The notes beneath the pieces are model-generated. The model had not been told where the DNA came from. It worked only from the letters and a program-made list of their open reading frames with translations, and ran no database searches. This document shows, in pieces, positions 743 through 40,118 of a DNA stretch of 40,118 nucleotides; positions within the stretch are counted from its first letter, which is position 1, and the number at the start of each line of letters is the position of its first letter. The position numbers were made by a program, and so were the translations under genes. The stretch lies in the sequence record PZ379598.1; one strand, written 5' to 3'. Source of the stretch: a phage.

Positions 743-765
743 TCCCTATAGTGATAGTTAAGTCC
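743..765 (-). promoter_or_regulatory. Phage RNAP promoter (phiOR analogue)
   Basis: Plus-strand CCTATAGTGATAGTTAAG equals the minus-strand consensus CTTAACTATCACTATAGGGAAG; it sits downstream of terminase and upstream of gene 19.5. Confidence 0.75.
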
Positions 766-857
766 AAACTCCTTGTAAAACAGTAGGTTAGACTGGTAGT
801 AACTATAGGTTACTAACTGCTTATTAACTCAGTTTTCACCTATAGTTATTCATTCAG

Positions 858-2624
858 CTAGTGGAACGTAACGTATGCCCCTAGTCCAAGCTCGTCGTCC
901 GTATCGTGAGTTACCCGGACCCCATTGTCCCAGAACTCAGTGTGGATGGACTCGAAGCCTTTCCGTGGGTTCTCCATCTGTTCCTCCAGCCACTCCTCAG
1001 TGACTTCACGTTCTCCTTTGTTGGCATCCTTAGCCATAGACTCAACGAAGAACTGTACACCGATAGCCAGCGCATCAAGTCGGTCATCGTGTGCCAAGGC
1101 TCCACGTTCACGAGAGATACGTGTCATCTGGTAGAAGAGAGAGTAGATAGGGTTACGAACACCATCCTTATCAGAGGCCGACTGGTAGTCTTGGACGATA
1201 GCAGCAGCGTTAACGATAAGTCGGTGAGACCCCATGATAGGCTCCAGAACGTCACAGATGCGGAGTTCTTTCTGACCCTTACTCTTCACTTCAGTTACAG
1301 CCGCAGGATGGATACGGGCCGCTACAGGCTTGAATAGCTCAAGGTACATACCATCACCGAAGTTACCCTCAATGACGTATTCGTTGACCTTCCACTTACG
1401 ACCAATCTTAGCCAAGGCTTCCAGCGTAGAGTCTTCATAACCACCACGCATACCACCAACTTCCATAGCGAAGATGTAGCCGTTGAGCTGGTACAGTACC
1501 GCATAACCAGTTTCATCCTTACCACGACCACTAGGGTCAATGACCAGAATCTTCTGGGTGTACGAGCTAAAGGCAGAGCCTACAGTCTGATACGTGTGGT
1601 ACGAGTCACCCATGAGTCCAACGTTAGGAACGTCCTCACGCTTGTTCTGAGGGTTCGGCAACCATTGGTAGACCATTGGGCTGGACGCTGGGTCCAAGTC
1701 GGCTACGATAAGGTCACGGAGCTTCAGAGGGTACTTCTCGGCATCACTCAGGTTCGGGTTAAGCATGAACTGTAGAGCGAAGCCAGCTTTACCGTAGGAC
1801 AGCTCACGTTCCTTCAGGTCCGTATCATCGAAGCGTACTTCATCAGTCGGACGCCAGTAGAAGGACTCAGGGTCCTCTTCCAGCTCTGCCTGAAGCATAG
1901 GAGCCAGACGGTCGCCGTAAGACTGCCAGTCCTTCCTGTCGCGTGGATAACGAGCGGGCCAGATAGTAGTGGTGTACCCACGACCTTCCAGCTCACGGTA
2001 CAGGGTCATCTCGTTCTGAGGAGTACCCAGATAGATGATCGTACCTCCCGGCTTCAGGATAGCGTCGAACTCTTTCACAAGCTCTGATAGACGGTCTCGT
2101 GCAGCCTGAGTCGCTGAGTTGTTCGGAACCTCCACGTCATCGGCAATCAGGATGTCAGCACGACTACCAGTCAACTGACCAGTGATACCAACGGACTTAA
2201 CCGAAGGTGAGTGGTCTGGCTTGGCAGGTCCCACGTCGAAGCTGATAACCGCATCTCGCTGCCCCTGTTTAGGTTTGAGTTCCTGAAGCTGAGGCATGAG
2301 GTCGATGATTCGCTTGATGAAGATGGAGTTCGCATCGGCTCGTTCCTTTGAGGCCGACACAATCATGAACTTCAAGTCTGGGTTATTCCATAGCTTCCAG
2401 ACCACAAAGCCACAGGTCAAAAACGACTTGCCAATACCACGGAACGCCTGAAGGATGAAGCGGCGATTATCCCCAGCAGCCAGCTTCTTACACATATCTA
2501 TCTGGCAGCGGGTTGGAACCGGAAGACTTAGTGCTTTCCAGAGAACGAAGATGAAGAACACGAAGTCGTCCCTCATCCTTTGGACCATTTCTGCCTGTCT
2601 TTCAGCGGGTGTTTTCTTAGACAT
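858..2624 (-). CDS. gp19: Terminase large subunit (T7 gp19-like)
   Basis: 588 aa; near-colinear identity with recalled T7 gp19 ([58 protein letters not shown]). Confidence 0.95.
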
Positions 2625-3054
2625 ATAGTCCCTCCAGCATTAGGTCCCGGACAGCGATAGACTCCTCTAAAGTGGGACGTGTTGTTCGCATATAGGCATT
2701 CCCGCGTTTAACCTGAATCCTATAACCATTCTGGTGACGGGTAACGCACTTCACTCCTGTCTTAGAGTCATAATGGCTACCAGTATTCCAAGTGTTTTCA
2801 GCGGCAGTAACGAGCCGTAAGTTACTTAAGGTATTATTGCTAGGGTTCCTGTAGATGTGGTCTATTTGCATACCATGCGGTATAGGACCATTGGTTAGTT
2901 CCCATATCACACGATGGGCCCGCTTACTGCCTAGACTTCGTGTCTGTACTATCCAATATCCCATCCGACTTAATGTTCCCACAGGCTTTCCAGTCCTAAC
3001 GGAGACCAGACCGGATGGACTAGCCGGGTCCACTTTGTAGTAATCACTTAACAC
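2617..3054 (-). CDS. HNH homing endonuclease
   Basis: 145 aa with an HNH core ([41 protein letters not shown]); overlaps the spanin 3' end and the terminase start. Confidence 0.8.
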
Positions 3055-3496
3055 CTTGGAGCCTCCTTATTGTGTCCTGAAGCGCCTTCTCCTTAAGGTC
3101 TGCCTCCTGAGTTAATCGGATAAGACTTTTAGAAGTTTCTGGGTGTAGTTCGACTCTACCATTAGGGAAGCATCTACTGACATCTGACTCGGTGAGACCT
3201 GAGGTGTTGACTCGGACGCGCAGCCGCTTGTTATCGCGGTTAAGGTCAGCAATAATCCTATCAGTAGAGCCTTCCAGCGCGGACATCTTGTCTTGCCACT
3301 CGGCTGACACTTTGTTGATTTCACCTTGGACAGCAGCCCGTTGATTCTCTCGTGCCTCAAGTTTCGTGATGTACTCATTGTTTACCTTCGCCTCCCACTT
3401 ATTGTCTGCCACCCAGTAGCCAGAACAGAACAGGAGTCCTGCAACCAGCCACGGGATTGCTTTACGTAAAAGTTCGAGCATAGTTGCCCTCCTCAT
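3044..3496 (-). CDS. gp18.5: i-spanin (Rz-like, T7 gp18.5-like)
   Basis: 150 aa; N-terminal membrane anchor then coiled-coil; matches recalled T7 gp18.5 (LRKLIPW..AG.LF, EGSTDRII.DL..DNKRLRVRV, LQDTIR.LQ). Confidence 0.9.
   Translation of the reverse strand: MRRATMLELLRKAIPWLVAGLLFCSGYWVADNKWEAKVNNEYITKLEARENQRAAVQGEINKVSAEWQDKMSALEGSTDRIIADLNRDNKRLRVRVNTSGLTESDVSRCFPNGRVELHPETSKSLIRLTQEADLKEKALQDTIRRLQGVK
3112..3378 (-). CDS. gp18.7: o-spanin (Rz1-like) embedded in the +1 frame of the i-spanin gene
   Basis: Embedded ORF with a hydrophobic stretch followed by a lipobox-like TSGC and a Pro/Ser-rich tail; embedded Rz1 architecture is typical for T7. The true start is probably downstream of the ORF-track start. 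Confidence 0.65.
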   Translation of the reverse strand: MSTSRNLRHERINGLLSKVKSTKCQPSGKTRCPRWKALLIGLLLTLTAITSGCASESTPQVSPSQMSVDASLMVESNYTQKLLKVLSD

Positions 3497-3540
3497 TTCT
3501 CAGAATCCACGTAGCGTCTCCGCCCGTAGTGTGTGTTAAC

Positions 3541-3580
3541 CATAAAGGCCACTACATATAGTAATGACCTTGAGTCTAAC
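3541..3580 (-). promoter_or_regulatory. Putative RNase III processing hairpin (R18.5 position)
   Basis: One of three copies of a conserved element (minus strand ...GACTCAAGGTCATTACTATATGTAGTGGCCTTTATG); resembles the recalled T7 R1.1 hairpin. It sits between small terminase and the spanin gene. Confidence 0.6.
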
Positions 3581-3582
3581 AC

Positions 3583-3846
3583 TTACTGTACACCATACCC
3601 GGTGTCGTTATCCTCAGTAGCTGAGAGCACCTTATCGTACTCCCTGTTCAAAGCCTCCATATCAGCGAGCGTCTTCTCGTCAACAGACACCTTGCTTAGC
3701 ACGAAGTTGTGACGAGCCAGTAGCTTCTCAATGGCGTTGTAAAGCTGAGGTGAACGCTTAGAGTCATCCCGCAGGTCTTGCAGCATGAGTCTAGCACGTT
3801 CAGTATCCAGCATCAAGAGGAACTTCTCTAAGTCCATCTGCGTCAT
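3583..3846 (-). CDS. gp18: Terminase small subunit (T7 gp18-like)
   Basis: 87 aa; matches recalled T7 gp18 (F..MLDT, RSPQLYNAI.KLL.RH.F). Confidence 0.85.
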   Translation of the reverse strand: MTQMDLEKFLLMLDTERARLMLQDLRDDSKRSPQLYNAIEKLLARHNFVLSKVSVDEKTLADMEALNREYDKVLSATEDNDTGYGVQ

Positions 3847-4037
3847 GTTTTACCACCTCCTTTAATCGTTTTGTAGACTAGCACACCAATCTGGACAACG
3901 GTGTACGCGATAGCTGCAACGTAGAACCATTCGTTCAGTGTAAGTCCGAAGAAGAACCGACTGGCACCATCAGCCGCAGCGGTCCCGACGATAGGAGAGG
4001 CTTTAAGGACCTCATTCTTGAAGTCTAACTCAATCAT
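3843..4037 (-). CDS. gp17.5: Holin (T7 gp17.5-like, class II)
   Basis: 64 aa; near-identical core to recalled T7 gp17.5 (KA.PIVGT..AD...R.FFGL.LNEWFYVAAIAYTVVQIG). Confidence 0.9.
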   Translation of the reverse strand: MIELDFKNEVLKASPIVGTAAADGASRFFFGLTLNEWFYVAAIAYTVVQIGVLVYKTIKGGGKT

Positions 4038-4147
4038 AAAACCTCCAGTTTAAAGCGGGTCGTCCGTGACCCAAAGTTGTTACATACGTTGGTTAGCGTG
4101 TAGTTAGTCTCTACCCCCACCAACTTAATGGCAAAATGGTTTGTTTA

Positions 4148-4375
4148 TTACTTCTGTTCAAGAGCAGAAAGTCTGGCTTCGATTCTTTCCAGTTTTCTTC
4201 TCTGATAAGCGGCTTCAGCAAAGAAAATTCCGTCAGGCCGAACACCCCACTCCTCACCCTCTTCGTGAATAACCACCTCGGTGTATACAGGTTCTTCCGT
4301 AGTAGTGACATTACCCTCCTCGTCAGTGTGTTCAACGATTTCATTGTGCGAAAATACCGTACCAGTATTACTCAC
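4148..4375 (-). CDS. Hypothetical acidic protein (75 aa) downstream of the tailspike
   Basis: ORF begins with GTG overlapping the tailspike stop (GTGA overlap), has an acidic N-terminal half and a helical C-terminus (AEAAYQRRKLERIEARLSALEQK). No T7 counterpart between genes 17 and 17.5. Confidence 0.5.
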   Translation of the reverse strand: MSNTGTVFSHNEIVEHTDEEGNVTTTEEPVYTEVVIHEEGEEWGVRPDGIFFAEAAYQRRKLERIEARLSALEQK

Positions 4376-6903
4376 TTAGACATAACAGCTAATGCTTCCT
4401 GCATACGCTTAATAGTACGCCGCATCAACGCAGCCTCTAATATCAGTACTTCCTCGTAACGAATACCGTAGCGGGAACCTGCTGGTGTAATCAGTTTACG
4501 AGAGCCATTGGCATCTTCCTCGTATACATCATCCCAACTGTCGAAGCACAGGAAGCCATAGCTATGTGCATCTATACCGTGACGTTCGAAGGCCTCCTTA
4601 GCTCGCTGAGCGATGATGCCGAAGTGCCATCTAGCTGAGTCTGCACCCTTCTCCTCAATTCGGTCCAAGTACTGAAACTGCACAAAGTCAACTTCAGACC
4701 AAGCATCCAGTAAAGCATCTGAGATATTAAGAGGCTCTGTTTTATCCCTAGCATCTGAGACAACAGTGAATGCTGATTGAGTAAAACCGCCAGACCATGC
4801 TCGACTTGCGGAACCTAATGCGTATGTATTAGTACTATCTGGGGTCATTGCATCAGAACCTAACTGCAAATAACCTGTGCTACTGGTAGGAAGACGCACG
4901 TTGCCGTTGGTGAGGGACACTGTCCGATAAATACCATCAGAAGTAAATAGTCGAACTTGAGAAGATGCACCACCACCTACAGCTAATGACACAGCACCAT
5001 CCCCAAGCATTCTGTACTTATCAGCAGAAGTAAGAACGCCTGAAGGGAGTGACATGGACTTAATCCGCCATTCGAACCTACCTGACATACTACCTATGTA
5101 CTGCCCTAAGGCAGGTGCGTGCACTACGTTACTATTACTAGTGCCGTCAATAGTAGCTGCACCGTCAATAGTACTAACAGAACTGAGAAGGTCGTTTCTC
5201 CTGCCAGGGTGTTTTACCTCTACGAAGTTACGGGTAGAGCCGGATTCGAAAGTAATAACACCTGTAGCACTGTAGCTAGGAAATACAGACGCATAGTTGT
5301 TATTAGCTGTACCTATAAAGCGTGCAATTGTAGCAGTCTGCCCTTGTCCTGAAGAGTTAGTACCATCACATCCTGACATAAGCACATTATTTATGACGTT
5401 ATCAGACCCTTCTACGGTAACGCCATGAGCCTGATTAGCATCAGAAGTTGAGTAATCTACGAGCACGTCTGAGATTAAGTTCGTATTTCCTTTGCCTGCA
5501 ACAACCGCTGCATACTTAGGGTTATTAGCCATCACCCCCTTTATAATGTTATTAGAAGGAGCTATTGGCCCTTCAGTGCCGTTGTAAGTTACATGCTGGC
5601 AATCTGCCCCTATAACATTACTGACTATGTTGTAACTGGCTGTACCTTTCAACTCTACTGCTCCGAACTGAGGGTAGTTCTTAGCAATAACGTTATCTAT
5701 GAGGGAGTTAACTGAGGAGTCAGCAAGTACGCATCCGGCTGCCTTATTAGTAGCATAGCCGGAATAGCCACCTCGAATGCCTTTAATCATAAGTCCATCA
5801 GGTGGCGCATCATTAGGGTATGCGATTAAACTGAAACCAGTACCTTTAACGTTTGAGAAGTTAACGTCACTTACAGTAACATCGCTTCCACCCGCAAGAG
5901 ATACCTGCTGTCCCTGAGTTGTATCAGTCGCCTTATTACTTTCTACCGTAATATTACTTAAGCGACCTGTACGTGGATTGTTAAATACTAAGTAGTTACC
6001 TGTACTGGAACGGTGACTTAGCACGCCACTACCCCTACCGTCTAAGTTACAGTAATTACTATTAATACCAGAACTAGAGAATACACCTTCTGATGCTACG
6101 ACAGCTTTTTGAGAATTTAGTGAAGCAGCTATATTCTCCGTACTATCTGTTACACCATCCCCTTTAGCACCCCAGCCTCGAACATCACCCTCATCACGCC
6201 ATCTTGCCATCTGCAATTCCGGGTAGAGTATTGCCCCTTCCGGGTTTGAAATCTGACTTCTTAAAGCAGCATCACCAACACTAACCCACGCACCTAATCC
6301 AATCCCACCGGAAGTTTCAGGAGTTGAACCAGCAGGAACGTTCTTTGGAAGCGTACCATCCCAGCGGTAATAATCACCATCCTCTTCCCATAGCAGGACC
6401 TCGCTCCATGTTGTAACGTTGTAGCCTTTCTCGAAGGAGCGACGGGTAATATAGCCAATTAGACCAGCTTCCCTGATACTCGCAGCGATTCGGCGTGCTT
6501 CGTCCTCGCTATCCTTAGCGTTGCCAGCAGAGCTACCAGCAGCATCGGCATATTCCTTCGCTAAGTCAACCGTTTGGTCTCGACCTTCTTCTGCAATATG
6601 GATAGCCTGAAGCTCTGAATTGGTCAGGTCACTAGCTGTCAACACTGAGCCATTCCTGAAATCTACCACTAAGTCAGTTCCAGTCTGACGGTGAATACGA
6701 ACTATGTCGAAACCTGATTGGTCAACCAACATCTCAATCATCGTTGGATTAAGGAATCGGTAATCTCGACCAACTTCCAGTACACGGTTCAGGGTAGGGT
6801 TAGAGCTATTCACCAGCGTAACAACAACAAACGTTCTGGCTAGGTAGTCGAACTCAATCCTGTACTGAGTGTTTCCTGAAGGGAATTGTGTAATCGTGGA
6901 CAT
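4372..6903 (-). CDS. gp17: Tail fibre / tailspike: gp17-like N-terminal adaptor, central beta-helix (putative polysaccharide depolymerase), C-terminal intramolecular chaperone (peptidase S74-like)
   Basis: N-terminal ~150 aa match recalled T7 gp17 (EYLAR.FVVVTL, DYRF, LVDF.NGS.L.A.DL). The central region has repetitive N..I.NV..G beta-helix-like segments. The C-terminus has SDARDK (Ser-x4-Lys) and HFGIIAQRAKE resembling S74 chaperone motifs. Confidence 0.85.
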   Translation of the reverse strand: MSTITQFPSGNTQYRIEFDYLARTFVVVTLVNSSNPTLNRVLEVGRDYRFLNPTMIEMLVDQSGFDIVRIHRQTGTDLVVDFRNGSVLTASDLTNSELQAIHIAEEGRDQTVDLAKEYADAAGSSAGNAKDSEDEARRIAASIREAGLIGYITRRSFEKGYNVTTWSEVLLWEEDGDYYRWDGTLPKNVPAGSTPETSGGIGLGAWVSVGDAALRSQISNPEGAILYPELQMARWRDEGDVRGWGAKGDGVTDSTENIAASLNSQKAVVASEGVFSSSGINSNYCNLDGRGSGVLSHRSSTGNYLVFNNPRTGRLSNITVESNKATDTTQGQQVSLAGGSDVTVSDVNFSNVKGTGFSLIAYPNDAPPDGLMIKGIRGGYSGYATNKAAGCVLADSSVNSLIDNVIAKNYPQFGAVELKGTASYNIVSNVIGADCQHVTYNGTEGPIAPSNNIIKGVMANNPKYAAVVAGKGNTNLISDVLVDYSTSDANQAHGVTVEGSDNVINNVLMSGCDGTNSSGQGQTATIARFIGTANNNYASVFPSYSATGVITFESGSTRNFVEVKHPGRRNDLLSSVSTIDGAATIDGTSNSNVVHAPALGQYIGSMSGRFEWRIKSMSLPSGVLTSADKYRMLGDGAVSLAVGGGASSQVRLFTSDGIYRTVSLTNGNVRLPTSSTGYLQLGSDAMTPDSTNTYALGSASRAWSGGFTQSAFTVVSDARDKTEPLNISDALLDAWSEVDFVQFQYLDRIEEKGADSARWHFGIIAQRAKEAFERHGIDAHSYGFLCFDSWDDVYEEDANGSRKLITPAGSRYGIRYEEVLILEAALMRRTIKRMQEALAVMSK

Positions 6904-6953
6904 TATGCCTCCTTTGTGATTTAAATGGAGACCTATGGTAGCGCCTCCAGTTT

Positions 6954-6971
6954 CCTATAGTGATAGTTTAG
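6954..6971 (-). promoter_or_regulatory. Phage RNAP promoter (phi17 analogue)
   Basis: Plus-strand CCTATAGTGATAGTTTAG; upstream of the tail fibre gene. Confidence 0.8.
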
Positions 6972-9900
6972 TCCTTGATGTGGATGCCTTGCTCCTCAAA
7001 CGTTCCAAGCAGCAGCTTCTGGGTAATGGGGTCGTTCGGAACCAGTTCACGTAACGTATTATACATCCCGGTCATGTAGTCACGCTCGTTGACACGAGTA
7101 TCAGCCTTGAGGTAGCCAGCCAAGTTGTAAGCCGAAGCGCCAACGTTAGCAGCATATCCGAAAGCTGGAACCTGCTCCAAGAAGTTACCAACAACATTCA
7201 TCACAGGGTCACTTGTAGCTGCACCATACGCGATGGCACGCTCAGGCTTCTCTGTAGGAGAACGAGGTAGGATAGACGAACGGAGCATCTTAGTGTCCTC
7301 ATATCCAGCGATGCCTCCCAGAATGTTAGCTACCCCAAGTGGGCCACCAAGATGTGAACTACGGGACAGGGCCGCATAGCCAATCATCGTTGGGTCCAGA
7401 GCTTGCTTAAGGTAGTCACGGTCTCGACCATCCTGCATAGCATAAGCCTTGACATGCGCCTGAGCCATGTAGTAGATACCAGCCAGACCCATAGACATCA
7501 CGGTCGACAGTGCAGCGTCAATCGCTCTGTTGTTCTTCGTGGCGTTATAGAAGGTTCGCATGGTTCTCCCATTGATAGACTTGATGACGAAGTTCTTAAA
7601 CTGAAGTACAGTCTTAGCGAGAGGACCATAAGCCTTGGCGTCCATGTTTGACAGCTTATGAGGCCGGAGTAACGTCTCGTCAGCGATGGTGTCACCCATA
7701 CGCCACAGGTCCATAGCCCTTGGGTCCTGACTGAACGCCTTCTTATCCTTGATGGTGTACTTCCCGTCTGGCCCACGAGTCACTGACTCACGGATTAGGG
7801 ACTTAATTCCACTCCACTGCTCGTCAGATATACCAGCGGTCTTCAGCCAGCGGTCATCGAACTTACGCTTACTACCAGTCAGGCTATGCTCCACGATGTC
7901 AGACAGGAAGCCTTGACGTCCAGCATCTAACAGGTAGTTGGTCGTACCGTTGAGGACTTTAGTGAACGGAGAGCGTACTGCAAGTTCACCAGTGTAATAC
8001 TTAGCAGTCCCCAGAGCTGTAGCTGTACCACGACTAAGGTCACTGTAAGATCGCAGACGGTCGATAACATCCTGTTTAGACGGACGGATTGAGTCGTCCA
8101 ATTCTTTACCGAAGATAACATTATGCAGGTCCTTAATCTCCGAGGCCCCAACCTTCTTGTTACGGAAGGCTAGGTCACGGAAAATTGGGACTCCATGAAG
8201 CATTGCACGAACGTTACCACGAGCCAGCATACCACCAATCTCCGTTAAGTTCTGAACACCCATGTAGGCATTCTTAGCGAAGAACGATAGGTCTGTCATT
8301 GTGCGCATCACTGTAGCGAAGGCTGCATCATCAGCACCATCACGTCGAGCACGACCAGTGAGAATCTTCAAGGTGTCACGTAAGGTAGATACCTCACCTT
8401 TCAACTTACCGTCATCCCCAGCCTTGTTCATCATGGTCTCAACCAAGTCCTTCATGTCCTTCGTGGTCTTTCCTGTACCAGCCATGATAGCGATGTCCCC
8501 ATTAATTCTACGGTTGTACGCCGGAACAATCTTGTCCATGTCCCACTCACGCAGATTGTTGACACTGAACGTCTGACCGTTAGGTAGGACGATTGACATA
8601 TCGCTATCGAACAGGTTACGAGCCTCAAGGAAGCTGTTGTTCTCCAGACCCACCAGACCATTGATGTTCTCTTCCATTACGGATGAACGCTCGAACTGCT
8701 CGGTGTGAGAGATACCATAAGCCTTATCGTTGGCGTACTTATCGACCGCAGCCGCAAGTCCTTCTGGAGTCAACGTAGGGTCAGCCTCTAAGAGTGCCTC
8801 GTCCACACGTTTCTTGACCTCAGGTCGAGACGCATAGCTGGTCAACCATGACTTCTTGATGGCCTCCTGTAGTGCCTCTGGACTTCCAAGCTCCTTGATG
8901 TACAGCTCCTTCATCTGTTTGCTATACACATGCGGGACGTAGGTTCCCTTGAAGTGGCTACCCGGAAAGATAGACTGAGCGTCTGGACGACCAAACATCG
9001 CTGGGTTCTCCATCATCTCACGCTTGGCGTCGAACTGGTTCTTCAGTAGGTCATAGACTTTCATTTCTCCCGGAGTCAGTTCAGCCTTCAGGTTTCCGCT
9101 ACCGTCTTCGATAGCCATAGACACACGCTGGTAGATGTCCTGACGGAATGCGCCAGAGTCTCGCCAGAATGCAGTCTGGAAGTACGGGTCCTTTAGTGCC
9201 TCAGTAACCGCATCGTCGATGTCGTTGTAGAACCGATGGTCCACAGAACGAAGTCTCTCGAACACGTCTGACGCAGTTGTCCCGATTTTACCTGAGGCCC
9301 CAGACTGCATACCAGTAGGTGAACGCACTAAGTCAGCAGCTACTCCACGAATCTCAGGGTTCTCAGACCGAAGCAGCTTCAGGCCAATCTCGGTAAGTCC
9401 ACCAAGGTTCACACCAGCAGCGGCACGTTCCGGCTCAATCACTTCGTCAAAGACTTGACGTGTCTTAGGGTTCAGAGGGTTCTCACCAATCAGGATTGAA
9501 CCGTCTTCCAGTCGTACACTTCCCGGCTCATTCGGAACGTCAGCGAACTTAACGCCTTGATGACTAAAGGTCTGCTCACCTTCCTGAATAGGTAGACGAG
9601 ATAGGTCCTGACCATCAACGTTACGAGCAGTCTCACGAGCTTCCAGACGTGTAGCTGGACCAGCAAACTCATTAGTGTTGCGGCCTAAGGCTCTACCTAG
9701 TCCATCAGCGATAGCAGTCATACCGCCACCGAAGAGAGCACCACCAAGGATAGCTTCAGCCACATGAGCATCACCACCAGCCACTGAGGTACGTGCCATC
9801 TCAGACACACCAGCCAGTGCTCCAGATTGAGCCGCCACTGTGAACATCTTGTTTACCAGCTTACCGCCCTTACCAACCTGTCCAGCAATAGGAACGTAGG

Positions 9901-10855
9901 TCAGAGGGTCCACACCAGCGCCAATCACACCAGCGGCTAACTGAGCACCAGTCCCAGCCTTGGCCTTCTCTTGGTCCAACTTCTGGTTCTCAAGCGCCAA
10001 GTTAATAAGCTCGGTCAGGTTCTGAGGAGAGCCTCCAGTAATGACTCCGTAATACTGAGGCAAAACACCAGCGTTACGAATCTGGTCTAGCTCCTCACGA
10101 GACCACTTATGGTTGTTCCATCTGGTTGGGTTGAACACATCGCCAATGACATCCAGTGAGTCCTCAGTCTGACCAGCTCGTATAGCCACGCCGACCATAG
10201 AGTTCTTCACTTCAGCTTCTGTAGCCGCACCGAAACCGAACCACGTAGAGCGGTCCTCTTGCTCCTGCATGGTCTCTCCAGTAGCCTTATAGAACATCTC
10301 ACCGAACGATTCGTTGGGAGCTTCAGGTGCTTGACCATCAATGTTCAGACCAGCAGCGGTCGGAAGGTTCTCACCCAGAGCTACTTTAGGTTTAGCCTTG
10401 AGTCCTTCCGTGAGTGCGTCAAATACGTTAGCGCTTACTGGTGGAGTCTTTGGGCTAATGCCATTGAGTGCTCTTGCGACTCCCTTCTGATAGACTTCTG
10501 GGTCGTACCGGGAGCCTGTCTCATGGTAGCCGATAGCCTCAGACAGAGAGGCGAGGACATCATGGTTCGTCAGGTCGATACTTTGTGTTGCTGGAATACC
10601 AGTCGCAGCCACAACAGAGTTGATGTAGGACTGAGTGTCGTTCTCGCTCGGAGGTGCCCATCTGTTGATAATCTTCTCGATAGAGTCATAACCTTGGCGA
10701 CCGTAGCTTTGAAGGGTTTTCGCTAATGCTCTGACCCCAGATTCAGGACTGTCGAAGATAACGAATGCACCATCATCGCCTATAGCACCTTCCCACTGGT
10801 CTTTGGACTTACGGATATTGCCCGGATTTGCGTTCCTTACACCACGTGTTGCCAT
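6968..10855 (-). CDS. gp16: Internal virion (core/ejection) protein D (T7 gp16-like) with a divergent N-terminal domain
   Basis: 1295 aa; long colinear similarity to recalled T7 gp16 from about residue 185 onward (STWFGF, TRWN.H.W..EEL, VTGGSP.NL, VRSPTGMQSGASGK, MENPAIFG, NGDIAIMG.TGKTTK, RAMDLWR). The first ~180 aa do not resemble the T7 transglycosylase domain. Confidence 0.9.
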   Translation of the reverse strand: MATRGVRNANPGNIRKSKDQWEGAIGDDGAFVIFDSPESGVRALAKTLQSYGRQGYDSIEKIINRWAPPSENDTQSYINSVVAATGIPATQSIDLTNHDVLASLSEAIGYHETGSRYDPEVYQKGVARALNGISPKTPPVSANVFDALTEGLKAKPKVALGENLPTAAGLNIDGQAPEAPNESFGEMFYKATGETMQEQEDRSTWFGFGAATEAEVKNSMVGVAIRAGQTEDSLDVIGDVFNPTRWNNHKWSREELDQIRNAGVLPQYYGVITGGSPQNLTELINLALENQKLDQEKAKAGTGAQLAAGVIGAGVDPLTYVPIAGQVGKGGKLVNKMFTVAAQSGALAGVSEMARTSVAGGDAHVAEAILGGALFGGGMTAIADGLGRALGRNTNEFAGPATRLEARETARNVDGQDLSRLPIQEGEQTFSHQGVKFADVPNEPGSVRLEDGSILIGENPLNPKTRQVFDEVIEPERAAAGVNLGGLTEIGLKLLRSENPEIRGVAADLVRSPTGMQSGASGKIGTTASDVFERLRSVDHRFYNDIDDAVTEALKDPYFQTAFWRDSGAFRQDIYQRVSMAIEDGSGNLKAELTPGEMKVYDLLKNQFDAKREMMENPAMFGRPDAQSIFPGSHFKGTYVPHVYSKQMKELYIKELGSPEALQEAIKKSWLTSYASRPEVKKRVDEALLEADPTLTPEGLAAAVDKYANDKAYGISHTEQFERSSVMEENINGLVGLENNSFLEARNLFDSDMSIVLPNGQTFSVNNLREWDMDKIVPAYNRRINGDIAIMAGTGKTTKDMKDLVETMMNKAGDDGKLKGEVSTLRDTLKILTGRARRDGADDAAFATVMRTMTDLSFFAKNAYMGVQNLTEIGGMLARGNVRAMLHGVPIFRDLAFRNKKVGASEIKDLHNVIFGKELDDSIRPSKQDVIDRLRSYSDLSRGTATALGTAKYYTGELAVRSPFTKVLNGTTNYLLDAGRQGFLSDIVEHSLTGSKRKFDDRWLKTAGISDEQWSGIKSLIRESVTRGPDGKYTIKDKKAFSQDPRAMDLWRMGDTIADETLLRPHKLSNMDAKAYGPLAKTVLQFKNFVIKSINGRTMRTFYNATKNNRAIDAALSTVMSMGLAGIYYMAQAHVKAYAMQDGRDRDYLKQALDPTMIGYAALSRSSHLGGPLGVANILGGIAGYEDTKMLRSSILPRSPTEKPERAIAYGAATSDPVMNVVGNFLEQVPAFGYAANVGASAYNLAGYLKADTRVNERDYMTGMYNTLRELVPNDPITQKLLLGTFEEQGIHIKD

Positions 10856-11286
10856 GTCTTTCTCCTCAATATATTTCGTATGGAAACGACGCTTACCCCG
10901 TATAAGGTGGAAAGCTCAGATACTTTTAATGGACTGGAGCGTATTTCCCTAACAGATTCCTCTGTCAGTATAGCTCTGCCTGCTCCACTACCTCTTGCCT
11001 GTCGGCCTCTGGATACCTTATCTGCAATGTTGTCAGCCTGCGTTCCTACTTCAAGGTGTTCAGGATTTATGCATGATGGATTATCACATTTATGCCTAAC
11101 AACATAGCCATCTGGTATTGGCCCCTTATTTATGGAGTAGGAGAGACGATGTGCCATATACTTAACCCTAGCCACCATTATCCTTCCGTATCCTTCTCCG
11201 TCTAAGTGGCCTGTGAATCGGATACAGCCAGACTCTTCAGCTACTGACAGTTCTGCCAGTCTCTCACTGGCTGTCCCGTTCTTCAT
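10837..11286 (-). CDS. HNH homing endonuclease with C-terminal helix-turn-helix-like tail
   Basis: 149 aa; HNH core (GYGRIMV...HRLSYSINKGPIPDGYVVRHKCDNPSCINPEHLEVGTQADN); wedged between the gp15 and gp16 genes. Confidence 0.8.
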   Translation of the reverse strand: MKNGTASERLAELSVAEESGCIRFTGHLDGEGYGRIMVARVKYMAHRLSYSINKGPIPDGYVVRHKCDNPSCINPEHLEVGTQADNIADKVSRGRQARGSGAGRAILTEESVREIRSSPLKVSELSTLYGVSVVSIRNILRRKTWQHVV

Positions 11287-14657: not shown

Positions 14658-14677
14658 CCCTATAGTGATAGTTAAGG
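14658..14677 (-). promoter_or_regulatory. Phage RNAP promoter (phi13 analogue) embedded in a 12-bp inverted repeat
   Basis: Plus-strand CCCTATAGTGATAGTTAAGG, flanked by AAGGGCCTATAG (14645-14656) and its exact reverse complement CTATAGGCCCTT (14683-14694). Confidence 0.8.
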
Positions 14678-19339: not shown

Positions 19340-19445
19340 ATGATAATTCTCCTATTCAATTGAAAGATAAAGTTTATTACTTACTGTATGCCCAATCCGT
19401 ATGGACTGAAGTAATAGGGAAACCTTGAGTCTTTCTCTTGGTCTC

Positions 19446-19463
19446 CCTATAGTGATAGTTTAG
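19446..19463 (-). promoter_or_regulatory. Phage RNAP promoter (phi10 analogue, strong class)
   Basis: Plus-strand CCTATAGTGATAGTTTAG; minus strand reads CACTATAGGGAGACC, and the leader begins with a GGAGACC...GGTTTCC stem-loop like the T7 gene 10 leader. Confidence 0.85.
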
Positions 19464-19465
19464 TC

Positions 19466-20386: not shown

Positions 20387-20433
20387 CTGCCTCGTCTAGT
20401 TGACTCACCTAGAGTTGGACTTACGGTGTTGTT

Positions 20434-20452
20434 CCTATAGTGATAGTTTAGG
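20434..20452 (-). promoter_or_regulatory. Phage RNAP promoter (phi9 analogue)
   Basis: Plus-strand CCTATAGTGATAGTTTAGG, overlapping the portal gene 3' end. Confidence 0.8.
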
Positions 20453-23189: not shown

Positions 23190-23252
23190 CTTGAATCTCC
23201 TTTAAGTTAAGACTAAAGTCTATCTTATAGTAATATCTTAGGTCCTAAAGTC

Positions 23253-23270
23253 CCTATAGTGATAGTTTAG
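23253..23270 (-). promoter_or_regulatory. Phage RNAP promoter (phi6.5 analogue), followed by a degenerate second copy at about 23225-23242
   Basis: Plus-strand CCTATAGTGATAGTTTAG; 30 bp further along the minus strand lies CTTATAGTAATATCTTAGG, matching 13 of 18 consensus positions. Confidence 0.8.
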
Positions 23271-23323
23271 TGTTTCACCTATGGATGACTGTCGGATTGA
23301 TAGGATATGACTATCTGTTAGAC

Positions 23324-24470: not shown

Positions 24471-24760
24471 TGCTTGACCTCGAATCGCAGGTTAGATACT
24501 CCGAACTGGTCATAACCAAAGTCGTCTACCAGCTCCTCCTTGATGGTCTTCTTGAGGGCAATTTCAAGGGCAGACTCAGGGCCTGACTCGATTGCGGTTT
24601 TGACCAGAGCCAACTGAAGACCATCCAGCTTCTCACCCTCAGCGTAGGCTTTAGTCATCTCAGCCAGTTGGCGACACATGGTATCTTCTTCCTTTGAGTT
24701 AACAACCATCTTCAGATCAAAACTCACACGAATACGTTTAGTAATAGCCATTAGTGACAC
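24467..24760 (-). CDS. gp5.5: T7 gp5.5-like protein (in T7, binds host H-NS)
   Basis: 97 aa; position and the N-terminal MA.TK...VSFD pattern match my recollection of gp5.5, with moderate certainty. Confidence 0.6.
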   Translation of the reverse strand: MSLMAITKRIRVSFDLKMVVNSKEEDTMCRQLAEMTKAYAEGEKLDGLQLALVKTAIESGPESALEIALKKTIKEELVDDFGYDQFGVSNLRFEVKQ

Positions 24761-25176
24761 TCCTTCTTAACAAGTTTGCGCTCACGGTTCGTCTTAATGA
24801 CGTGTTCGCGTTTTGTAATACACTGTAGATGCTCTATGTTGCAGCACCCACGGTTCAAGCACAAATGGTCTATTTCGTAGCCATTTGGTATAGGTCCGCG
24901 CTTCTGCTCCCACACCCATCGGTGGAACATGAAGGCGAACTTGTTGCCCTTCCTGTAGCTTCCCATGGAGTACCGGAAGTACCCATCTTGGTTCCTCTTG
25001 TGGGACACGCAGACGATACATCCGGTAGGCATGGTGTGGAAGCGTATGGTCTGGGTTCGAGGGTCAATGACACTCTTTCCACGTTGGTCCAATCTTACCC
25101 TCCGTATCAAGTTCACACTTGAAGTTATAGAAGCGTCCGACCTCGCGCATCGCCTCTTGAGCAATACGGACGACAT
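24751..25176 (-). CDS. HNH homing endonuclease overlapping the DNA polymerase 3' end
   Basis: 141 aa with an HNH core (CIVCVSHKRNQDGYFRY...FHRWVWEQKRGPIPNGYEIDHLCLNRGCCNIEHL); AGGAGA upstream of the ATG at 25176. The first ~113 nt overlap the polymerase C-terminal codons in another frame. Confidence 0.75.
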   Translation of the reverse strand: MSSVLLKRRCARSDASITSSVNLIRRVRLDQRGKSVIDPRTQTIRFHTMPTGCIVCVSHKRNQDGYFRYSMGSYRKGNKFAFMFHRWVWEQKRGPIPNGYEIDHLCLNRGCCNIEHLQCITKREHVIKTNRERKLVKKECH

Positions 25177-27235
25177 CTTCTGCTATCTCCTGAGTACGGC
25201 ACGCTATCTGCAATTCATCGTGAATCCAAGCCATTAGCGCAAAGTCGCCGTCCCATCCGTTACCGTAACCAGCCTCTTCAAGTTTCTTCTCAGTCAGTAC
25301 CATCCAGTGCTTACAGACAACCGCACCGTCCCCCTGAAGTAGGGCGTTAAGTGCTGAGTGTGGAGACCGGATGTGAATACGACGACCATCCAGACCTTTC
25401 AGCCAGCGACGTTTCCACTTGACGATATTCTCACCGTCCACCCACTTAGAGTCTGAGATTAACGTATTACTCACAGCTTCCCTGAGGTCCTTGATGGCTG
25501 GTGTACCCTCAATGAATTTCTTCATCAGAGCTGAACCTTCCTTCTTACCACCGCCTACTATCAGTCCAATCTTAGCGGCCCCTGCACCATACAGGAACGC
25601 GTAGATGAACGTCTTAGCGTTGTTACGGAAAGCCTCATGGTCGTGGTTAGACTTATCGCGTTGGACGTTAGGTGCTAACCCAGCGTTTACTGCGTTGGCC
25701 CAGTGGATGTCACCTTCTACCACAGTCTTCGCATATGCACCACCGTCAAACGGAGCCGCTCTGTTCCCAAGACAACGAAGCTCAAGACCTGAGGCATCCA
25801 CACCAACTTGAATCCAAGGGTCTGGCTTACCGTCCTTCTTGTTCCACGCTGCACCGAAAGCACCACGGCAAGTCTCACCATATGGAGCACCGTTAGCCGG
25901 GACCTGAGCCATGTTTGGTGAACTATGGGTCGCACGTCCGGTTACTGCCCCGCATGGGTTTATTGAGCCGTGCATACGTCCGTCTGGACCTACAAGTTTC
26001 AACCATGCGTTCTTACCTTCAGCAGCCTGACCGATGCGCTTCTGGACTACCAGGTACTCACGGACCAGCTCTACGCAAGCCTGAGCCTCTGCGTCTGGTA
26101 ACTTAACGTGTTCCAACGTCTCGTCATCGACTACAGGTTTCCCGGTGTCAGTGAAGTCCACAGGCTCCCAGCCACGCTCCATCAGAACTTTCGCTAAGTG
26201 GTCTCCGCTTCCCGGATTAAACTCAACGTAAGTGATAGGTGTGAACGGCGCTCCCTCCATCGTGTCTCGTGAGTCGAACTCGCAAGGCTCCAGACCTAAG
26301 CGTTGAGCTTTGTTCTTCGGCTTCTTGAATACTGACCCGACCTTCGGATACACGACTCGCGGATACTTCGGAAGGTCCTTGCCTGTCCGTGGGTGCTTGA
26401 AGAACTCCTTGCCTCCCTTTGGTGCGTACCAGCTGCCGAAAGTCGAACGCAGCTTGTCCAGCAGCTCTGCACGTTTGACGGTGAGTTCACGATATAAACC
26501 TTCGACCATCTCGGTGTTCATCGGATAGCCGTTACGCTCCATCTTCGCACAGGTCCACGCAGCATCATGTTCCAGACGCAACGCATAAATCTGGTCGAAA
26601 GCGAACTGTTCAGACTGGAAGTAATACTTGTCAGTCAGGAACTTCTTGAACAGCGCCAGCGTGACCACAACGTCTTGAACGTTATAGTCCAGCATCTCCT
26701 GAGACGGGAACATCCATTCGTCCCCAGCCTTATATTCGATACCTTCGGCCTTGCACTTGGCAACGTAATCGTGTTTGTACTCACCCTTCATCTCACCAAG
26801 ACGATAGCCCCAAGCCTCAAGAGACTGGCGTCCCATCATCTTAGGAGGCAGACGACCAGCTTTCACCGCGCCCATGTCTGAGAACTTAATGTTTGGATAC
26901 ATCAAGCGGCCTAGCACCAAGGTATCAATCATCTTGTGTTTCGGGAAGTTAAAACGTTTCCCAAAGTACAGACGCTTCAGCTTGTCTATAGCAGGGACGT
27001 CATAGTTGATACCGTTGTGAAATACCAGCATACCATCAGGCGATGCGGCAATCTCTTCAACTTTATGAACATACTCTTTGAAGCCACCGACGATACCGAC
27101 CATCGGAGCTACCCCATACTTAAGGGTCTCATTCGACTCGGCGTTAATCAGGACCCCACAGTGAAACTGGGAGACTGTATCAAGGAGACCGTTGGTCTCG
27201 ATGTCAGAACCCCAGATACTCTTAAGGTCAAACAT
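25064..27235 (-). CDS. gp5: DNA polymerase (T7 gp5-like, family A)
   Basis: Identity with recalled T7 gp5 (DIE.N.LL..V..FHCGV, FHNG..YDVPA, LEAWGYRLGEMKGEYK, DYNVQDVVVT, C-terminal LDTEGK.GP.W..CH). Start taken at internal ATG 27235 (GGAGGA 6 nt upstream); the track start at 27271 lies inside the upstream hairpin. Confidence 0.95.
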   Translation of the reverse strand: MFDLKSIWGSDIETNGLLDTVSQFHCGVLINAESNETLKYGVAPMVGIVGGFKEYVHKVEEIAASPDGMLVFHNGINYDVPAIDKLKRLYFGKRFNFPKHKMIDTLVLGRLMYPNIKFSDMGAVKAGRLPPKMMGRQSLEAWGYRLGEMKGEYKHDYVAKCKAEGIEYKAGDEWMFPSQEMLDYNVQDVVVTLALFKKFLTDKYYFQSEQFAFDQIYALRLEHDAAWTCAKMERNGYPMNTEMVEGLYRELTVKRAELLDKLRSTFGSWYAPKGGKEFFKHPRTGKDLPKYPRVVYPKVGSVFKKPKNKAQRLGLEPCEFDSRDTMEGAPFTPITYVEFNPGSGDHLAKVLMERGWEPVDFTDTGKPVVDDETLEHVKLPDAEAQACVELVREYLVVQKRIGQAAEGKNAWLKLVGPDGRMHGSINPCGAVTGRATHSSPNMAQVPANGAPYGETCRGAFGAAWNKKDGKPDPWIQVGVDASGLELRCLGNRAAPFDGGAYAKTVVEGDIHWANAVNAGLAPNVQRDKSNHDHEAFRNNAKTFIYAFLYGAGAAKIGLIVGGGKKEGSALMKKFIEGTPAIKDLREAVSNTLISDSKWVDGENIVKWKRRWLKGLDGRRIHIRSPHSALNALLQGDGAVVCKHWMVLTEKKLEEAGYGNGWDGDFALMAWIHDELQIACRTQEIAEDVVRIAQEAMREVGRFYNFKCELDTEGKIGPTWKECH

Positions 27236-27258
27236 GGTTAATCCTCCGTTTAGTCTAA

Positions 27259-27299
27259 TCATAAAGGCCACTCTATGTGAATGACCTTGAGTCTAGACC
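27259..27299 (-). promoter_or_regulatory. Putative RNase III processing hairpin (R4.7 position, before the DNA polymerase gene)
   Basis: Minus strand GACTCAAGGTCATTCACATAGAGTGGCCTTTATGATTAGAC: a 10-bp stem with G-U pairs, nearly identical to my recollection of the T7 R1.1 core (AAGGUCAUUCGCAAGAGUGGCCUUUAUGAUUGACC). Confidence 0.65.
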
Positions 27300-29268: not shown

Positions 29269-29288
29269 CCCTAAGGTGATAGTTTAGG
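29269..29288 (-). promoter_or_regulatory. Variant phage promoter upstream of the primase-helicase gene
   Basis: Plus-strand CCCTAAGGTGATAGTTTAGG (two mismatches to the consensus in the TATAG box), preceded by a GGGAC...GTCCC hairpin at about 29248-29267. Confidence 0.55.
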
Positions 29289-31654: not shown

Positions 31655-31673
31655 TCCTACAGTGATAGTTTAG
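31655..31673 (-). promoter_or_regulatory. Phage RNAP promoter (variant, upstream of the SSB gene)
   Basis: Plus-strand CCTACAGTGATAGTTTAGG (one mismatch in the TATAG box); overlaps the gp2 stop codon. Confidence 0.65.
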
Positions 31674-31828
31674 GTCTCAGGACGAATCCGTCCGACCATA
31701 AACCCAGCGTCCTCATACTCTTGGGACTTCAGGGTAGCCTCTTCAAGAGACTTTGCGTACACCGGAACCTCGAAGGACTGGGTACGTCCCTCAAGTTCCA
31801 CGATGTATTTCTTCTCTACGTCAGTCAT
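31670..31828 (-). CDS. gp2: Host RNA polymerase inhibitor (T7 gp2-like)
   Basis: Hand-translated 52-aa [55 protein letters not shown], resembling recalled T7 gp2 (SFEVP.YA..L.EA......Y..AGF.V.R.RP); AAGGAG 8 nt upstream. Coordinates +/-2 nt. Confidence 0.65.
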
Positions 31829-32603: not shown

Positions 32604-32631
32604 AGAGTCTCCTTTTGTTGTTGATGGTTGT

Positions 32632-32651
32632 CCTATAGTGATAGCTTAGGG
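32632..32651 (-). promoter_or_regulatory. Phage RNAP promoter (first promoter after the early terminator)
   Basis: Plus-strand CCTATAGTGATAGCTTAGGG. Confidence 0.8.
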
Positions 32652-34216: not shown

Positions 34217-34249
34217 ACGGTTAAATCTCCAGTAGTGTTTATTTAGGGT

Positions 34250-34293
34250 TAATCATGAAGGCCACGACTTTGAGTCATGACCTTGAGTCTAAT
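34250..34293 (-). promoter_or_regulatory. Putative RNase III processing hairpin (R1.1 position)
   Basis: Minus strand GACTCAAGGTCATGACTCAAAGTCGTGGCCTTCATGATT; third copy of the conserved element, in the leader between the phi1.1-like promoter and gene 1.1. Confidence 0.6.
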
Positions 34294-34313
34294 CCTATAG
34301 TGATAGTTTAGGG
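34294..34313 (-). promoter_or_regulatory. Phage RNAP promoter (phi1.1 analogue)
   Basis: Plus-strand CCTATAGTGATAGTTTAGGG. Confidence 0.8.
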
Positions 34314-37541: not shown

Positions 37542-37614
37542 ACTTAAAGTCCTTGTTATTAGTCTTTCACTTAAAGTCTCTTTGGTCTTTCACTTGGAGT
37601 CTTAGACCTTGAGT

Positions 37615-37633
37615 CCTATAGTGATAGTTAAGT
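37615..37633 (-). promoter_or_regulatory. Phage RNAP promoter directly upstream of the RNAP gene
   Basis: Plus-strand CCTATAGTGATAGTTAAGTC, about 75 nt upstream of the RNAP start codon; the leader contains two copies of AGTCTTTCACTT. Confidence 0.7.
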
Positions 37634-39967: not shown

Positions 39968-40118
39968 AGACCAATAGTCCCTGCCTATCGTCCTTCCCTA
40001 AGCCATAGCCACAACCTATCGTTGACCTGAAGTCTTGACCATCGGTCTAACCTTATGATATACTGGGGTAGGGCCTTTGGTCTGGACTGAAAGATGGCCT
40101 ATGGGGGACTTGAGGTTC
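39968..40118. repeat. Direct terminal repeat, copy at window end
   Basis: Identical to bases 1-151; the repeat may extend beyond the window edge. Confidence 0.9.

Follow-up and report, generated by a model that had tools for sequence, protein, structure and literature searches.

A probable homing endonuclease cassette between the spanin and large terminase genes of a Kayfunavirus

What does an HNH endonuclease gene do when it lies, overlapping at both ends, between the spanin and large terminase (terL) genes of a T7-like phage? The question is raised by sequence record PZ379598.1, a complete Kayfunavirus genome of 40,118 nt, analyzed here over its full length (the window). A sequence-only reading of the window had described a 145-aa HNH endonuclease overlapping both neighbors, had remarked that T7 has no gene here, and had offered two explanations: a selfish homing endonuclease or a packaging helper. 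The ORF, overlaps of 8 nt and 11 nt, and a match to the HNH_3 family are all seen. The local layout is as follows.

858..2624, minus strand: large terminase (gp19), 588 aa, T7 type (Pfam PF22530, E 6e-38; phrog_38)
2617..3054, minus strand: ORF of the putative HNH-AP2 homing endonuclease, 145 aa, 438 nt, GTG start, TAA stop
3044..3496, minus strand: Rz-like i-spanin (gp18.5), 150 aa (ORF and profile matches)
3112..3378: o-spanin ORF, nested within the i-spanin ORF
3062-3069, minus strand: strong Shine-Dalgarno TAAGGAGG of the HNH gene, formed by Rz codons I-R-R and separated from the GTG by 7 nt

The HNH ORF shares its first 11 nt (3044-3054) with the end of the Rz-like i-spanin (Rz/gp18.5) ORF and its last 8 nt (2617-2624) with the beginning of the large terminase ORF. 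The terminase matches PF22530, the T7 RNaseH-like domain, and weakly Terminase_6N. At the corresponding T7 junction the gene order is 18, 18.5/18.7, 19, which agrees with the remark that T7 lacks the gene. No phage promoter lies inside or beside the HNH gene, promoter copies being absent between 764 and 6952. Without a phage promoter of its own, the HNH cassette is read from late transcripts that also encode packaging and lysis genes.

The HNH ORF is far beyond chance. It matches Pfam HNH_3 (PF13392) over aa 44-87 (E 9.6e-19; 67.2 bits, where the cut-off is 24.8) and phrog_99, 'HNH endonuclease', at E 1e-37, and at least 14 phage records, among them CR44b (gene 3.8A), UKE1, TH16, and ST16, keep it at 94-98% aa identity. 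Nor is the gene new: it is annotated in CR44b as 3.8A and has been described for Hafnia phage Ca (PMC8861465). The ORF shares its site, its overlaps, and 94-98% aa identity with CR44b 3.8A, Hafnia phage Ca ORF48, and other Kayfunavirus genes labeled 'HNH homing endonuclease', all of which represent one and the same gene. The family is very large: its cluster representatives in the protein library number more than 300,000, and the window itself holds two more HNH_3 ORFs, at 10837-11286 and 24751-25176. Our answer to the opening question is that the ORF probably encodes a free-standing, HNH_3/I-HmuI-like homing endonuclease with a C-terminal AP2 domain, and that it forms a mobile cassette at the Rz/terL site in some members of Kayfunavirus. 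The protein is considered first, and can be divided as follows.

2926..3054, minus strand: N-terminal β-strand region, aa 1-43, aligning with the N-terminal DNA-binding part of I-HmuI
2794..2925, minus strand: HNH_3 (ββα-metal) nuclease core, aa 44-87 (Pfam match)
2860-2862, 2857-2859, 2821-2823, and 2794-2796, minus strand: predicted catalytic residues D65, H66, N78, and N87, respectively
2632..2757, minus strand: predicted C-terminal AP2-like DNA-binding domain, aa 100-141, three strands and a helix

A PDB sequence search with the HNH protein returned nothing meaningful, and fold comparison was used instead. The top Foldseek match of the protein model is I-HmuI, the nicking homing endonuclease of Bacillus phage SPO1 (PDB 1u3e), with probability 1.00. 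As modeled, the protein is I-HmuI-like, that is, it is predicted to have the ββα-metal fold and an N-terminal β DNA-binding region. As to whether the catalytic motif might be inactive, D65, H66, N78, and N87 are all present in the alignment; these four, which we take to be the counterparts of I-HmuI D74, H75, N87, and N96, occupy positions conserved at 81, 96, 98, and 92%, respectively, in 276 related domains. The likeness to I-HmuI is one of fold, sequence identity being only ~21-25%. Moreover, I-HmuI is intron-encoded whereas the HNH protein is free-standing, and I-HmuI ends in a helix-turn-helix module in place of the AP2-like domain. The assignment of that domain is a prediction from the model and from relatives: Pfam AP2 is found in 6 of 14 aligned sequences (five of eight distant relatives and one closer homologue) and is not detected in the HNH protein, whether the whole sequence or its C-terminal fragment alone is searched, even at E ≤ 10, a threshold at which the Pfam search of the protein returned only PF13392. 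The nearest T7 relative is gp3.8, a member of the same Pfam family with 37.6% identity over aa 13-105, which accounts for the name 3.8A chosen by the CR44b annotators. The gp3.8 alignment stops at aa 105, without the AP2-like tail, and, like the remaining HNH_3 ORFs in T7-like phages, gp3.8 sits at a different locus (the early/middle region in T7).

Is the gene a fixed part of the terminase region? Among relatives it is polymorphic at a fixed Rz/terL site rather than present in all, which settles a point that the sequence-only reading had raised. In the phage collection, about 14 records carry the window-type allele (allele A) and about 145 related records have an empty Rz/terL junction; a 64%-identical allele (allele B) occupies the same site in about 40 records. 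A junction search found the HNH/terL junction in at least 46 records. HNH+ and HNH-less contigs coexist in one metagenome, and within the same phage collections. The true empty site is of the NS1 / L012-L020 type. KM02 was also considered as an empty site and rejected: its alignment is that of a deletion scar, which is rare (3 records in a junction-specific search). In the three isolated phages that bear the scar, KM02, Penshu1, and vB_EcoP-R1, 128 of the 145 HNH codons are gone, and their terL genes are 98% identical. The KM02-type scar is a 384-nt in-frame deletion joined at GGACC; 23 nt at the start of the ORF and 31 nt at its end remain, and the terL Shine-Dalgarno GGAGGG survives. The two copies of the microhomology, identified from the KM02-type alignment, lie 384 nt apart in the window.

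3027..3031, minus strand: GGACC microhomology, upstream copy
2643..2647, minus strand: GGACC microhomology, downstream copy

The HNH gene is dispensable for packaging.

The boundaries of the insertion reach into both neighbors. In HNH-less relatives, such as LM33P1, ST64, and CHRF_30111, the empty junction reads …CAGCAAGAGAAGGAGGTGAAACCTTGAGTCAAGACTTAGCGGCGCGTCAGGCGCTTATGACTGCCCGTATGAAGGCAGACTTCGTG…, with a conserved sequence around an AAGGAGG - TTGA start/stop overlap in which the terL TTG overlaps the Rz stop. These relatives have a different terL leader with a TTG start (MSQDLAARQALMTARMKA). The cassette begins at the Rz end and stops at about codon 19 of terL. Its 3′ end brings terL a replacement Shine-Dalgarno, ATG, and N-terminal leader, as follows.

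2630..2635, minus strand: Shine-Dalgarno GGAGGG of the large terminase gene, in the last HNH codons, 5 nt before the terL ATG (2622-2624)
2568..2624, minus strand: cassette-linked terL leader, ATG and first ~19 codons, from comparison with HNH-less relatives

All of the MSKKTP-type terL leaders found are joined to an HNH 3′ end. The Rz C-terminus is likewise remodeled, ending ..IRRLQGVK in the window versus ..IRKLQQEKEAKP in HNH-less relatives. The first ~20 terL residues are variable among T7-like genera anyway, a point against the homing explanation. A donor genus for the cassette-type leader was sought and the attempt set aside, the leaders of other T7-like genera being too variable to tell.

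Evidence that the cassette moves comes from other sites and from its flanks. NS1 has no HNH gene at its Rz/terL site but carries a copy between genes 17 and 17.5. Over 478 nt, this ectopic copy is 90% identical at the nt level to the allele-B cassette, and it retains 43 nt of the terL leader that follows the HNH stop. In a distant phage (L032), a 50%-identical member lies directly upstream of a terL gene that is only 76% identical. Rz alleles assort independently of the HNH gene. Two near-isogenic pairs, CHRF_30030/CHRF_30111 and ST16/ST64, are near-identical outside a segment of about -600 to +700 nt around the terL ATG. Between CHRF_30030 and CHRF_30111, 50-nt steps into terL show 37, 13, 14, 6, and 8 differences, and then ~0 beyond +700; ST16 and ST64 show the same island pattern. 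The island was carried over to the window by homology, with approximate ends.

1925..3225 (approximate), minus strand: polymorphic island, HNH+ versus near-isogenic HNH-less phages, comprising the last ~170 nt of Rz, the HNH gene, and the first ~700 nt of terL

The flanking gradient is compatible with homing without proving it. We infer homing from comparative patterns, and general recombination among mosaic phages could yield the same patterns.

The proposed route is as follows. In a mixed infection, the enzyme would nick or cut the HNH-less allele at the empty junction or close to it, the putative target being the AAGGAGG - TTGA overlap together with the naive terL leader. Repair off the HNH+ genome would then copy in the gene along with flanking markers; that is, intronless homing with co-conversion. 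HNH+ genomes would be immune, because their junction is split and their leader is different. The HNH gene can also disappear through deletion between short repeats, and it is able to move elsewhere in the genome. A precedent is found in SegF, SegG, and MobE of T4-like phages, for which intronless homing, localized marker exclusion, and co-conversion of flanks have been described (PMC2993671). Like the HNH gene, these are intergenic, lie between conserved essential genes, and are variably present (PMC2993671). The HNH gene shows comparative signatures like theirs. The Seg proteins are GIY-YIG enzymes, whereas MobE is an HNH enzyme. Unlike SegF, SegG, and MobE, the HNH cassette brings with it the translation start and the leader of the essential gene that follows.

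Of the two explanations first offered, the selfish homing endonuclease is the one that has held, through the polymorphism, the NS1 locus, the co-conversion-like gradients, and the fold; the packaging helper has not. The latter proposes that the HNH protein helps the large terminase to cut concatemers, as HK97 gp74 and the GVE2 HNH protein do for theirs, and we regard it as highly improbable. It is true that the gene lies directly upstream of terL, overlaps it, is co-transcribed with it late, and is under purifying selection (see below), and that gp74-type proteins, of about 100-120 aa, are likewise small His-Me finger proteins encoded beside a terminase gene. According to Kala et al. 2014, phages with gp74-type HNH proteins are reportedly of the cos type, and the gene is both conserved and essential in them. 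By contrast, the present gene is optional and sits beside a T7-type terminase, and it is absent from many relatives that have this terminase. HK97 gp74 has no sequence similarity to the HNH protein (BLASTP E 0.17) and belongs to a different Pfam family, PF01844 as opposed to PF13392 plus AP2. The gp74-type proteins pair with Terminase_1-type terminases in long-tailed phages (PMC8861465), whereas the terminase here is of the T7 type (PF22530) and the genome ends are 151-nt direct terminal repeats rather than cos ends. The 145 related records with an empty junction, the isolation of KM02, Penshu1, and vB_EcoP-R1 with most of the codons deleted, and the NS1 copy located away from terL all count against the helper as well. 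A role in packaging of the HK97 gp74 kind is therefore unsupported: homology is lacking, the terminase belongs to another family, and relatives that lack the gene, or carry it deleted, are viable.

Hafnia phage Ca (vB_HpaA_yong1, MK610268) bears on several of the alternatives. Its Rz/terL overlaps and a spontaneous 397-bp deletion have been described, and the deleted genomes dominate small plaques whereas intact genomes dominate large ones (PMC8861465). The authors raise the packaging idea, and the correlation can be counted in its favor. Small plaques, when replated, gave 83% large plaques, so that plaque size is not simply heritable (PMC8861465). No direct repeats of 5 nt or more explain the 397-bp deletion; only a 4-nt TGGA pair fits. 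The yong1 record also has a 1-nt insertion near codon 19 of the HNH gene, a frameshift variant. The plaque sizes hint at a role of the region in fitness beyond selfish spread (PMC8861465), a point against the homing explanation.

Might it be the cassette DNA that matters rather than the enzyme, the HNH protein of the window copy perhaps being inactive? The region would then be kept because expression of terL, and the C-terminus of Rz, now depend on the cassette's Shine-Dalgarno, ATG, and leader. We consider this distinctly unlikely as an account of the gene. It draws on the cassette linkage of the terL Shine-Dalgarno, ATG, and first ~19 codons, on natural deletions that retain exactly the terL signals, in frame, on the plaque-size correlation in Hafnia phage Ca, and on two substitutions private to the window copy, D68Y and A133S, by which it differs from the CR44b 3.8A and Hafnia phage Ca copies. 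On the other side are the dispensability of the HNH interior in the scar-bearing phages, the replating result, and the record of selection. Pairwise dN/dS values of the HNH gene are mostly 0.05-0.20 (all but one allele-A comparison), and the value between the two allele-B copies is 0.06. Values of 0.05-0.2 along the whole ORF show that the protein, and not only the DNA ends, has been under selection in the lineage.

The first of the private substitutions lies near the active site.

2851..2853, minus strand: codon 68, TAC (Tyr), a window-specific substitution; GAC (Asp) in all relatives

The D68Y SNP is at 2853 (versus PDP21P1, AN17P1, and UKE1). Tyr68 is two residues past the catalytic His66, at a position that in the family is Asn in 61% and Asp in 35% (Asn/Asp 96%; 276 related domains). 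D68Y makes the activity of the window copy uncertain, and the two changes together may have weakened it. Has the window gene, then, been recently inactivated, a homing endonuclease heading for loss? This is very unlikely in our estimation. Beyond the place of Tyr68, the case consists of the deletions and the yong1 frameshift among relatives, and of a local excess of changes: between the window and PDP21P1, three of the five differences in 2001-3700 fall inside the 438-nt HNH gene, and two of them are non-synonymous. Against it, the ORF is unbroken and encodes all four canonical catalytic residues, and three substitutions are too few for a test. Relaxed selection, considered on the basis of the three-in-five excess, was rejected as resting on too small a sample (binomial P about 0.1, an estimate).

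A homing endonuclease at the Rz/terL junction thus remains our preferred reading, and its meaning for new biology is small, free-standing HNH homing endonuclease genes being common in T7-like and other lytic phages. A further proposal, which we think unlikely, is that the selfish cassette has been wired into terminase expression by replacing a weak TTG start or, less likely, that the HNH protein aids a T7-type terminase. If the wiring were true, loss of or damage to the cassette would alter the output of terminase, and perhaps of spanin, and hence fitness, an addiction by gene-expression entanglement. The plaque-size correlation in Hafnia phage Ca would follow from either expression entanglement or HNH aid to terminase. 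For annotation, the start of the HNH gene is the GTG; several records shorten the gene or label it 'hypothetical'. For engineering and therapy, it is of use that the Rz/terL junction naturally tolerates an insertion and that the HNH gene is removable from it in frame. Finally, the near-isogenic HNH+ and HNH-less pairs offer a system at hand for the study of intronless homing in T7-like phages.

The sequence-only reading described an HNH ORF lying between the spanin and terminase genes and overlapping both, and the ORF coordinates bear this out. The layout is as follows.

2617–3054, minus strand: HNH ORF, 145 aa, GTG start
3044–3496, minus strand: Rz-like i-spanin ORF, overlapped by the HNH ORF by 11 nt
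3112–3378: o-spanin ORF, embedded in the i-spanin ORF
858–2624, minus strand: large terminase ORF (terL), overlapped by the HNH ORF by 8 nt
3062–3069: strong HNH Shine-Dalgarno, TAAGGAGG, formed from Rz codons Ile-Arg-Arg, 7 nt before the GTG
2630–2635: terminase Shine-Dalgarno, GGAGGG, lying with the terL ATG inside the last codons of the HNH ORF

An exact 151-nt direct terminal repeat (1–151 = 39968–40118) shows that the window holds an entire T7-like genome, given as the reverse complement of the usual map. It is 99.7% identical to Kayfunavirus PDP21P1 over the 1.7-kb region compared (window 2000–3700). A phage-promoter-like 20-mer, with a minus-strand form resembling CCTAAACTATCACTATAGGA, occurs in 12 copies spaced as expected for phage RNA polymerase promoters.

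744–763, 6953–6972, 14658–14677, 19445–19464, 20433–20452, 23223–23271: promoter-like 20-mers
29269–29288, 31655–31674, 32631–32650, 34293–34312, 37614–37633: promoter-like 20-mers (remainder)

A scan of the window found none from 764 to 6952. Since the closest copies are those at 6953–6972 and 744–763, the HNH ORF lacks its own promoter and is expressed from late transcripts. The window also contains a 45-nt repeat (3535–3579 and 34248–34292; 84% identity between copies), possibly an RNA processing hairpin. One copy lies between Rz and the small terminase gene, in the spacer that in T7 contains the R18.5 RNase III site.

The HNH protein matches Pfam HNH_3 at aa 44–87 (67 bits) and phrog_99 over almost its full length, and its AlphaFold2 model, from a 14-sequence alignment, has a mean pLDDT of 88.9. 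Of the 14 aligned relatives, 6 have a Pfam AP2 match; the window HNH sequence searched alone has none. At E ≤ 1e-3, this very large family has 304,354 cluster representatives. D65, H66, N78, and N87 are all present in the motif, at positions conserved in 81, 96, 98, and 92% of 276 related domains, respectively; I-HmuI residues D74, H75, N87, and N96 are colinear with them. Residue 68 is Tyr in the window protein and Asp in every close relative (D68Y), the wider family having Asn (61%) or Asp (35%) there. A133S is a second change private to the window copy. Pairwise dN/dS is 0.05–0.20 in all allele-A comparisons but one and 0.06 between two copies of allele B, the second version of the gene; thus, the protein is under purifying selection.

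Two further HNH_3 ORFs are present in the window. One (10837–11286, minus strand) encodes 149 aa, matches zf-His_Me_endon weakly, and lies between two large internal virion protein ORFs, overlapping the downstream one by 19 nt; it, too, is probably a free-standing homing endonuclease gene. The other (24751–25176, minus strand, 141 aa), which as listed shares 113 nt of its 5′ part with the DNA polymerase ORF (25064–27271) at the 3′ end of the latter, has the position of the T7 gene 5.3-like endonucleases.

Among relatives, the Rz/terL junction exists in four states. In the empty state, the terL TTG start is overlapped by the Rz stop (...AAGGAGGTGAAACCTTGAGT...); this junction is found in 145 phage records, in IMG/VR contigs L012–L020, and in Citrobacter phage NS1. 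Allele A, the window version (≥90% aa identity), occurs in 14 records, with Escherichia, Salmonella Typhi, Citrobacter, and Hafnia as hosts. Allele B, encoding a protein 64% identical to that of allele A, occupies the same site in about 40 records. Finally, KM02, Penshu1, and vB_EcoP-R1 carry a deletion scar, in which 23 nt from the start of allele A and 31 nt from its end are left; the two pieces meet, with the reading frame preserved, at GGACC, a 5-nt microhomology (window 3027–3031 and 2643–2647). Metagenome 3300045988 contains both HNH+ and HNH-less phages, and single isolate collections do too. The presence/absence comparison proposed in the sequence-only reading reveals a polymorphic site.

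A 50%-identical lineage member lies directly upstream of terL in contig L032, the terL of which is only 76% identical. In other T7-like viral contigs, unrelated ORFs of about 205 aa lie between Rz and terL (L024 2368–2985, in which a Pfam scan finds no domain; L040 2261–2875), as do small ORFs of 53–61 aa (L031 2822–2983, L038 2823–2999, L029 2814–2999), which marks the junction as an insertion hot spot. Record OR786095.1, "Staphylococcus phage MBBL139", has the Kayfunavirus HNH/terL junction at 94.8% identity and is probably mislabelled or contaminated. The HNH gene of Hafnia phage Ca (vB_HpaA_yong1, MK610268) has one extra base in a T run near codon 19 that puts it out of frame with every other copy; this base may be genuine variation or a sequencing error. 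Only a 46-aa remnant is annotated in GenBank, and the Ca paper gives a 143-aa ORF starting at another GTG (PMC8861465).

The gene travels with terL initiation signals. Allele B diverges from the empty site right after the Shine-Dalgarno that serves terL in empty genomes, so the inserted gene takes over terL's ribosome-binding site. The allele A join is ~15 nt farther upstream, and Rz is shortened to ...IRRLQGVK. In all HNH+ and scar genomes, the terL leader is ATG-initiated and ends (V/T)QRMRD; in all empty genomes, it is TTG-initiated and reads MSQDLAARQALMTARMKA or a variant. Both types rejoin at ...DFVFF, beyond which terL is 92–100% identical. Every ATG-type leader found in the phage collection has an HNH 3′ end attached.

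In NS1, the Rz/terL site is empty, and allele B is found instead between genes 17 and 17.5.

L004 (NS1) 3269–3721 plus flanks, minus strand: ectopic allele-B HNH cassette, between tail fibre and holin genes

The block is 90% identical to allele B over 478 nt, beginning exactly at the HNH start codon and ending 43 nt beyond the HNH stop, within the terL leader. The stop is changed from TAA to CAA, adding QENTR to the protein, and a ~45-nt duplication of local intergenic sequence flanks the insert. The terL leader fragment indicates that the gene moved between loci, carrying a piece of its old neighbor.

Exchange at the original site has also left a signature. CHRF_30030 (HNH+) and CHRF_30111 (empty) are nearly identical over the 4 kb compared, save from about −600 to +700 nt of the terL ATG; counted per 50 nt into terL, differences number 37, 13, 14, 6, and 8, then about zero. 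ST16 and ST64 show the same pattern. In the window, L003, L008, L011, L012, L013, and L004, the 5′ half of Rz (window 3250–3450) has two alleles, about 66% identical, that assort independently of HNH state, a sign that mosaic recombination is dense within the spanin gene.

Taken with the family, fold, and selection, the polymorphic site and its scars, the NS1 locus, and the island of divergence with its gradient make a free-standing HNH-AP2 homing endonuclease, one option of the sequence-only reading, the best-supported identity. We infer cleavage, its target, and immunity of HNH+ alleles, as follows. In a mixed infection, the enzyme would nick or cleave HNH-less relatives at the empty junction or in the adjoining naive leader, and recombinational repair would then copy the gene and flanking markers into the cut genome. 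Such intronless homing is known from the Seg and Mob endonucleases of T4 (PMC2993671).

The other option, that the protein assists terminase, fails on every defining feature that can be tested. The protein has no similarity to HK97 gp74 (E 0.17), which belongs to PF01844; the window terminase is T7-type rather than Terminase_1, and the genome has terminal repeats. Moreover, most relatives lack the gene, and three viable isolates, with terL 98% identical, have lost almost all of it. The sole contrary observation comes from Hafnia phage Ca, which carries the same gene: more than 98% of the genomes in small plaques carried a spontaneous deletion of 397 bp, whereas large plaques had >98% intact genomes, and the authors, citing the gp74 work, speculated on effects on terminase or lysin expression (PMC8861465). 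These data are hard to interpret, as replated small plaques gave 83% large plaques (PMC8861465). A cis effect on terL translation, plausible because the cassette bears terL initiation signals, is at least as likely a cause as protein function; we keep it as the main novel possibility, though an improbable one.

CR44b gene 3.8A and several other records are annotated as predicted homing endonucleases, and the position, overlaps, and deletability of the gene were described in PMC8861465; thus, the gene itself is already known and ordinary. Added here are a caveat for the window copy (D68Y), the definition of the empty site, two alleles, scar, cassette-borne terL leader, and ectopic copy, and the identification of near-isogenic pairs fit for a homing test.
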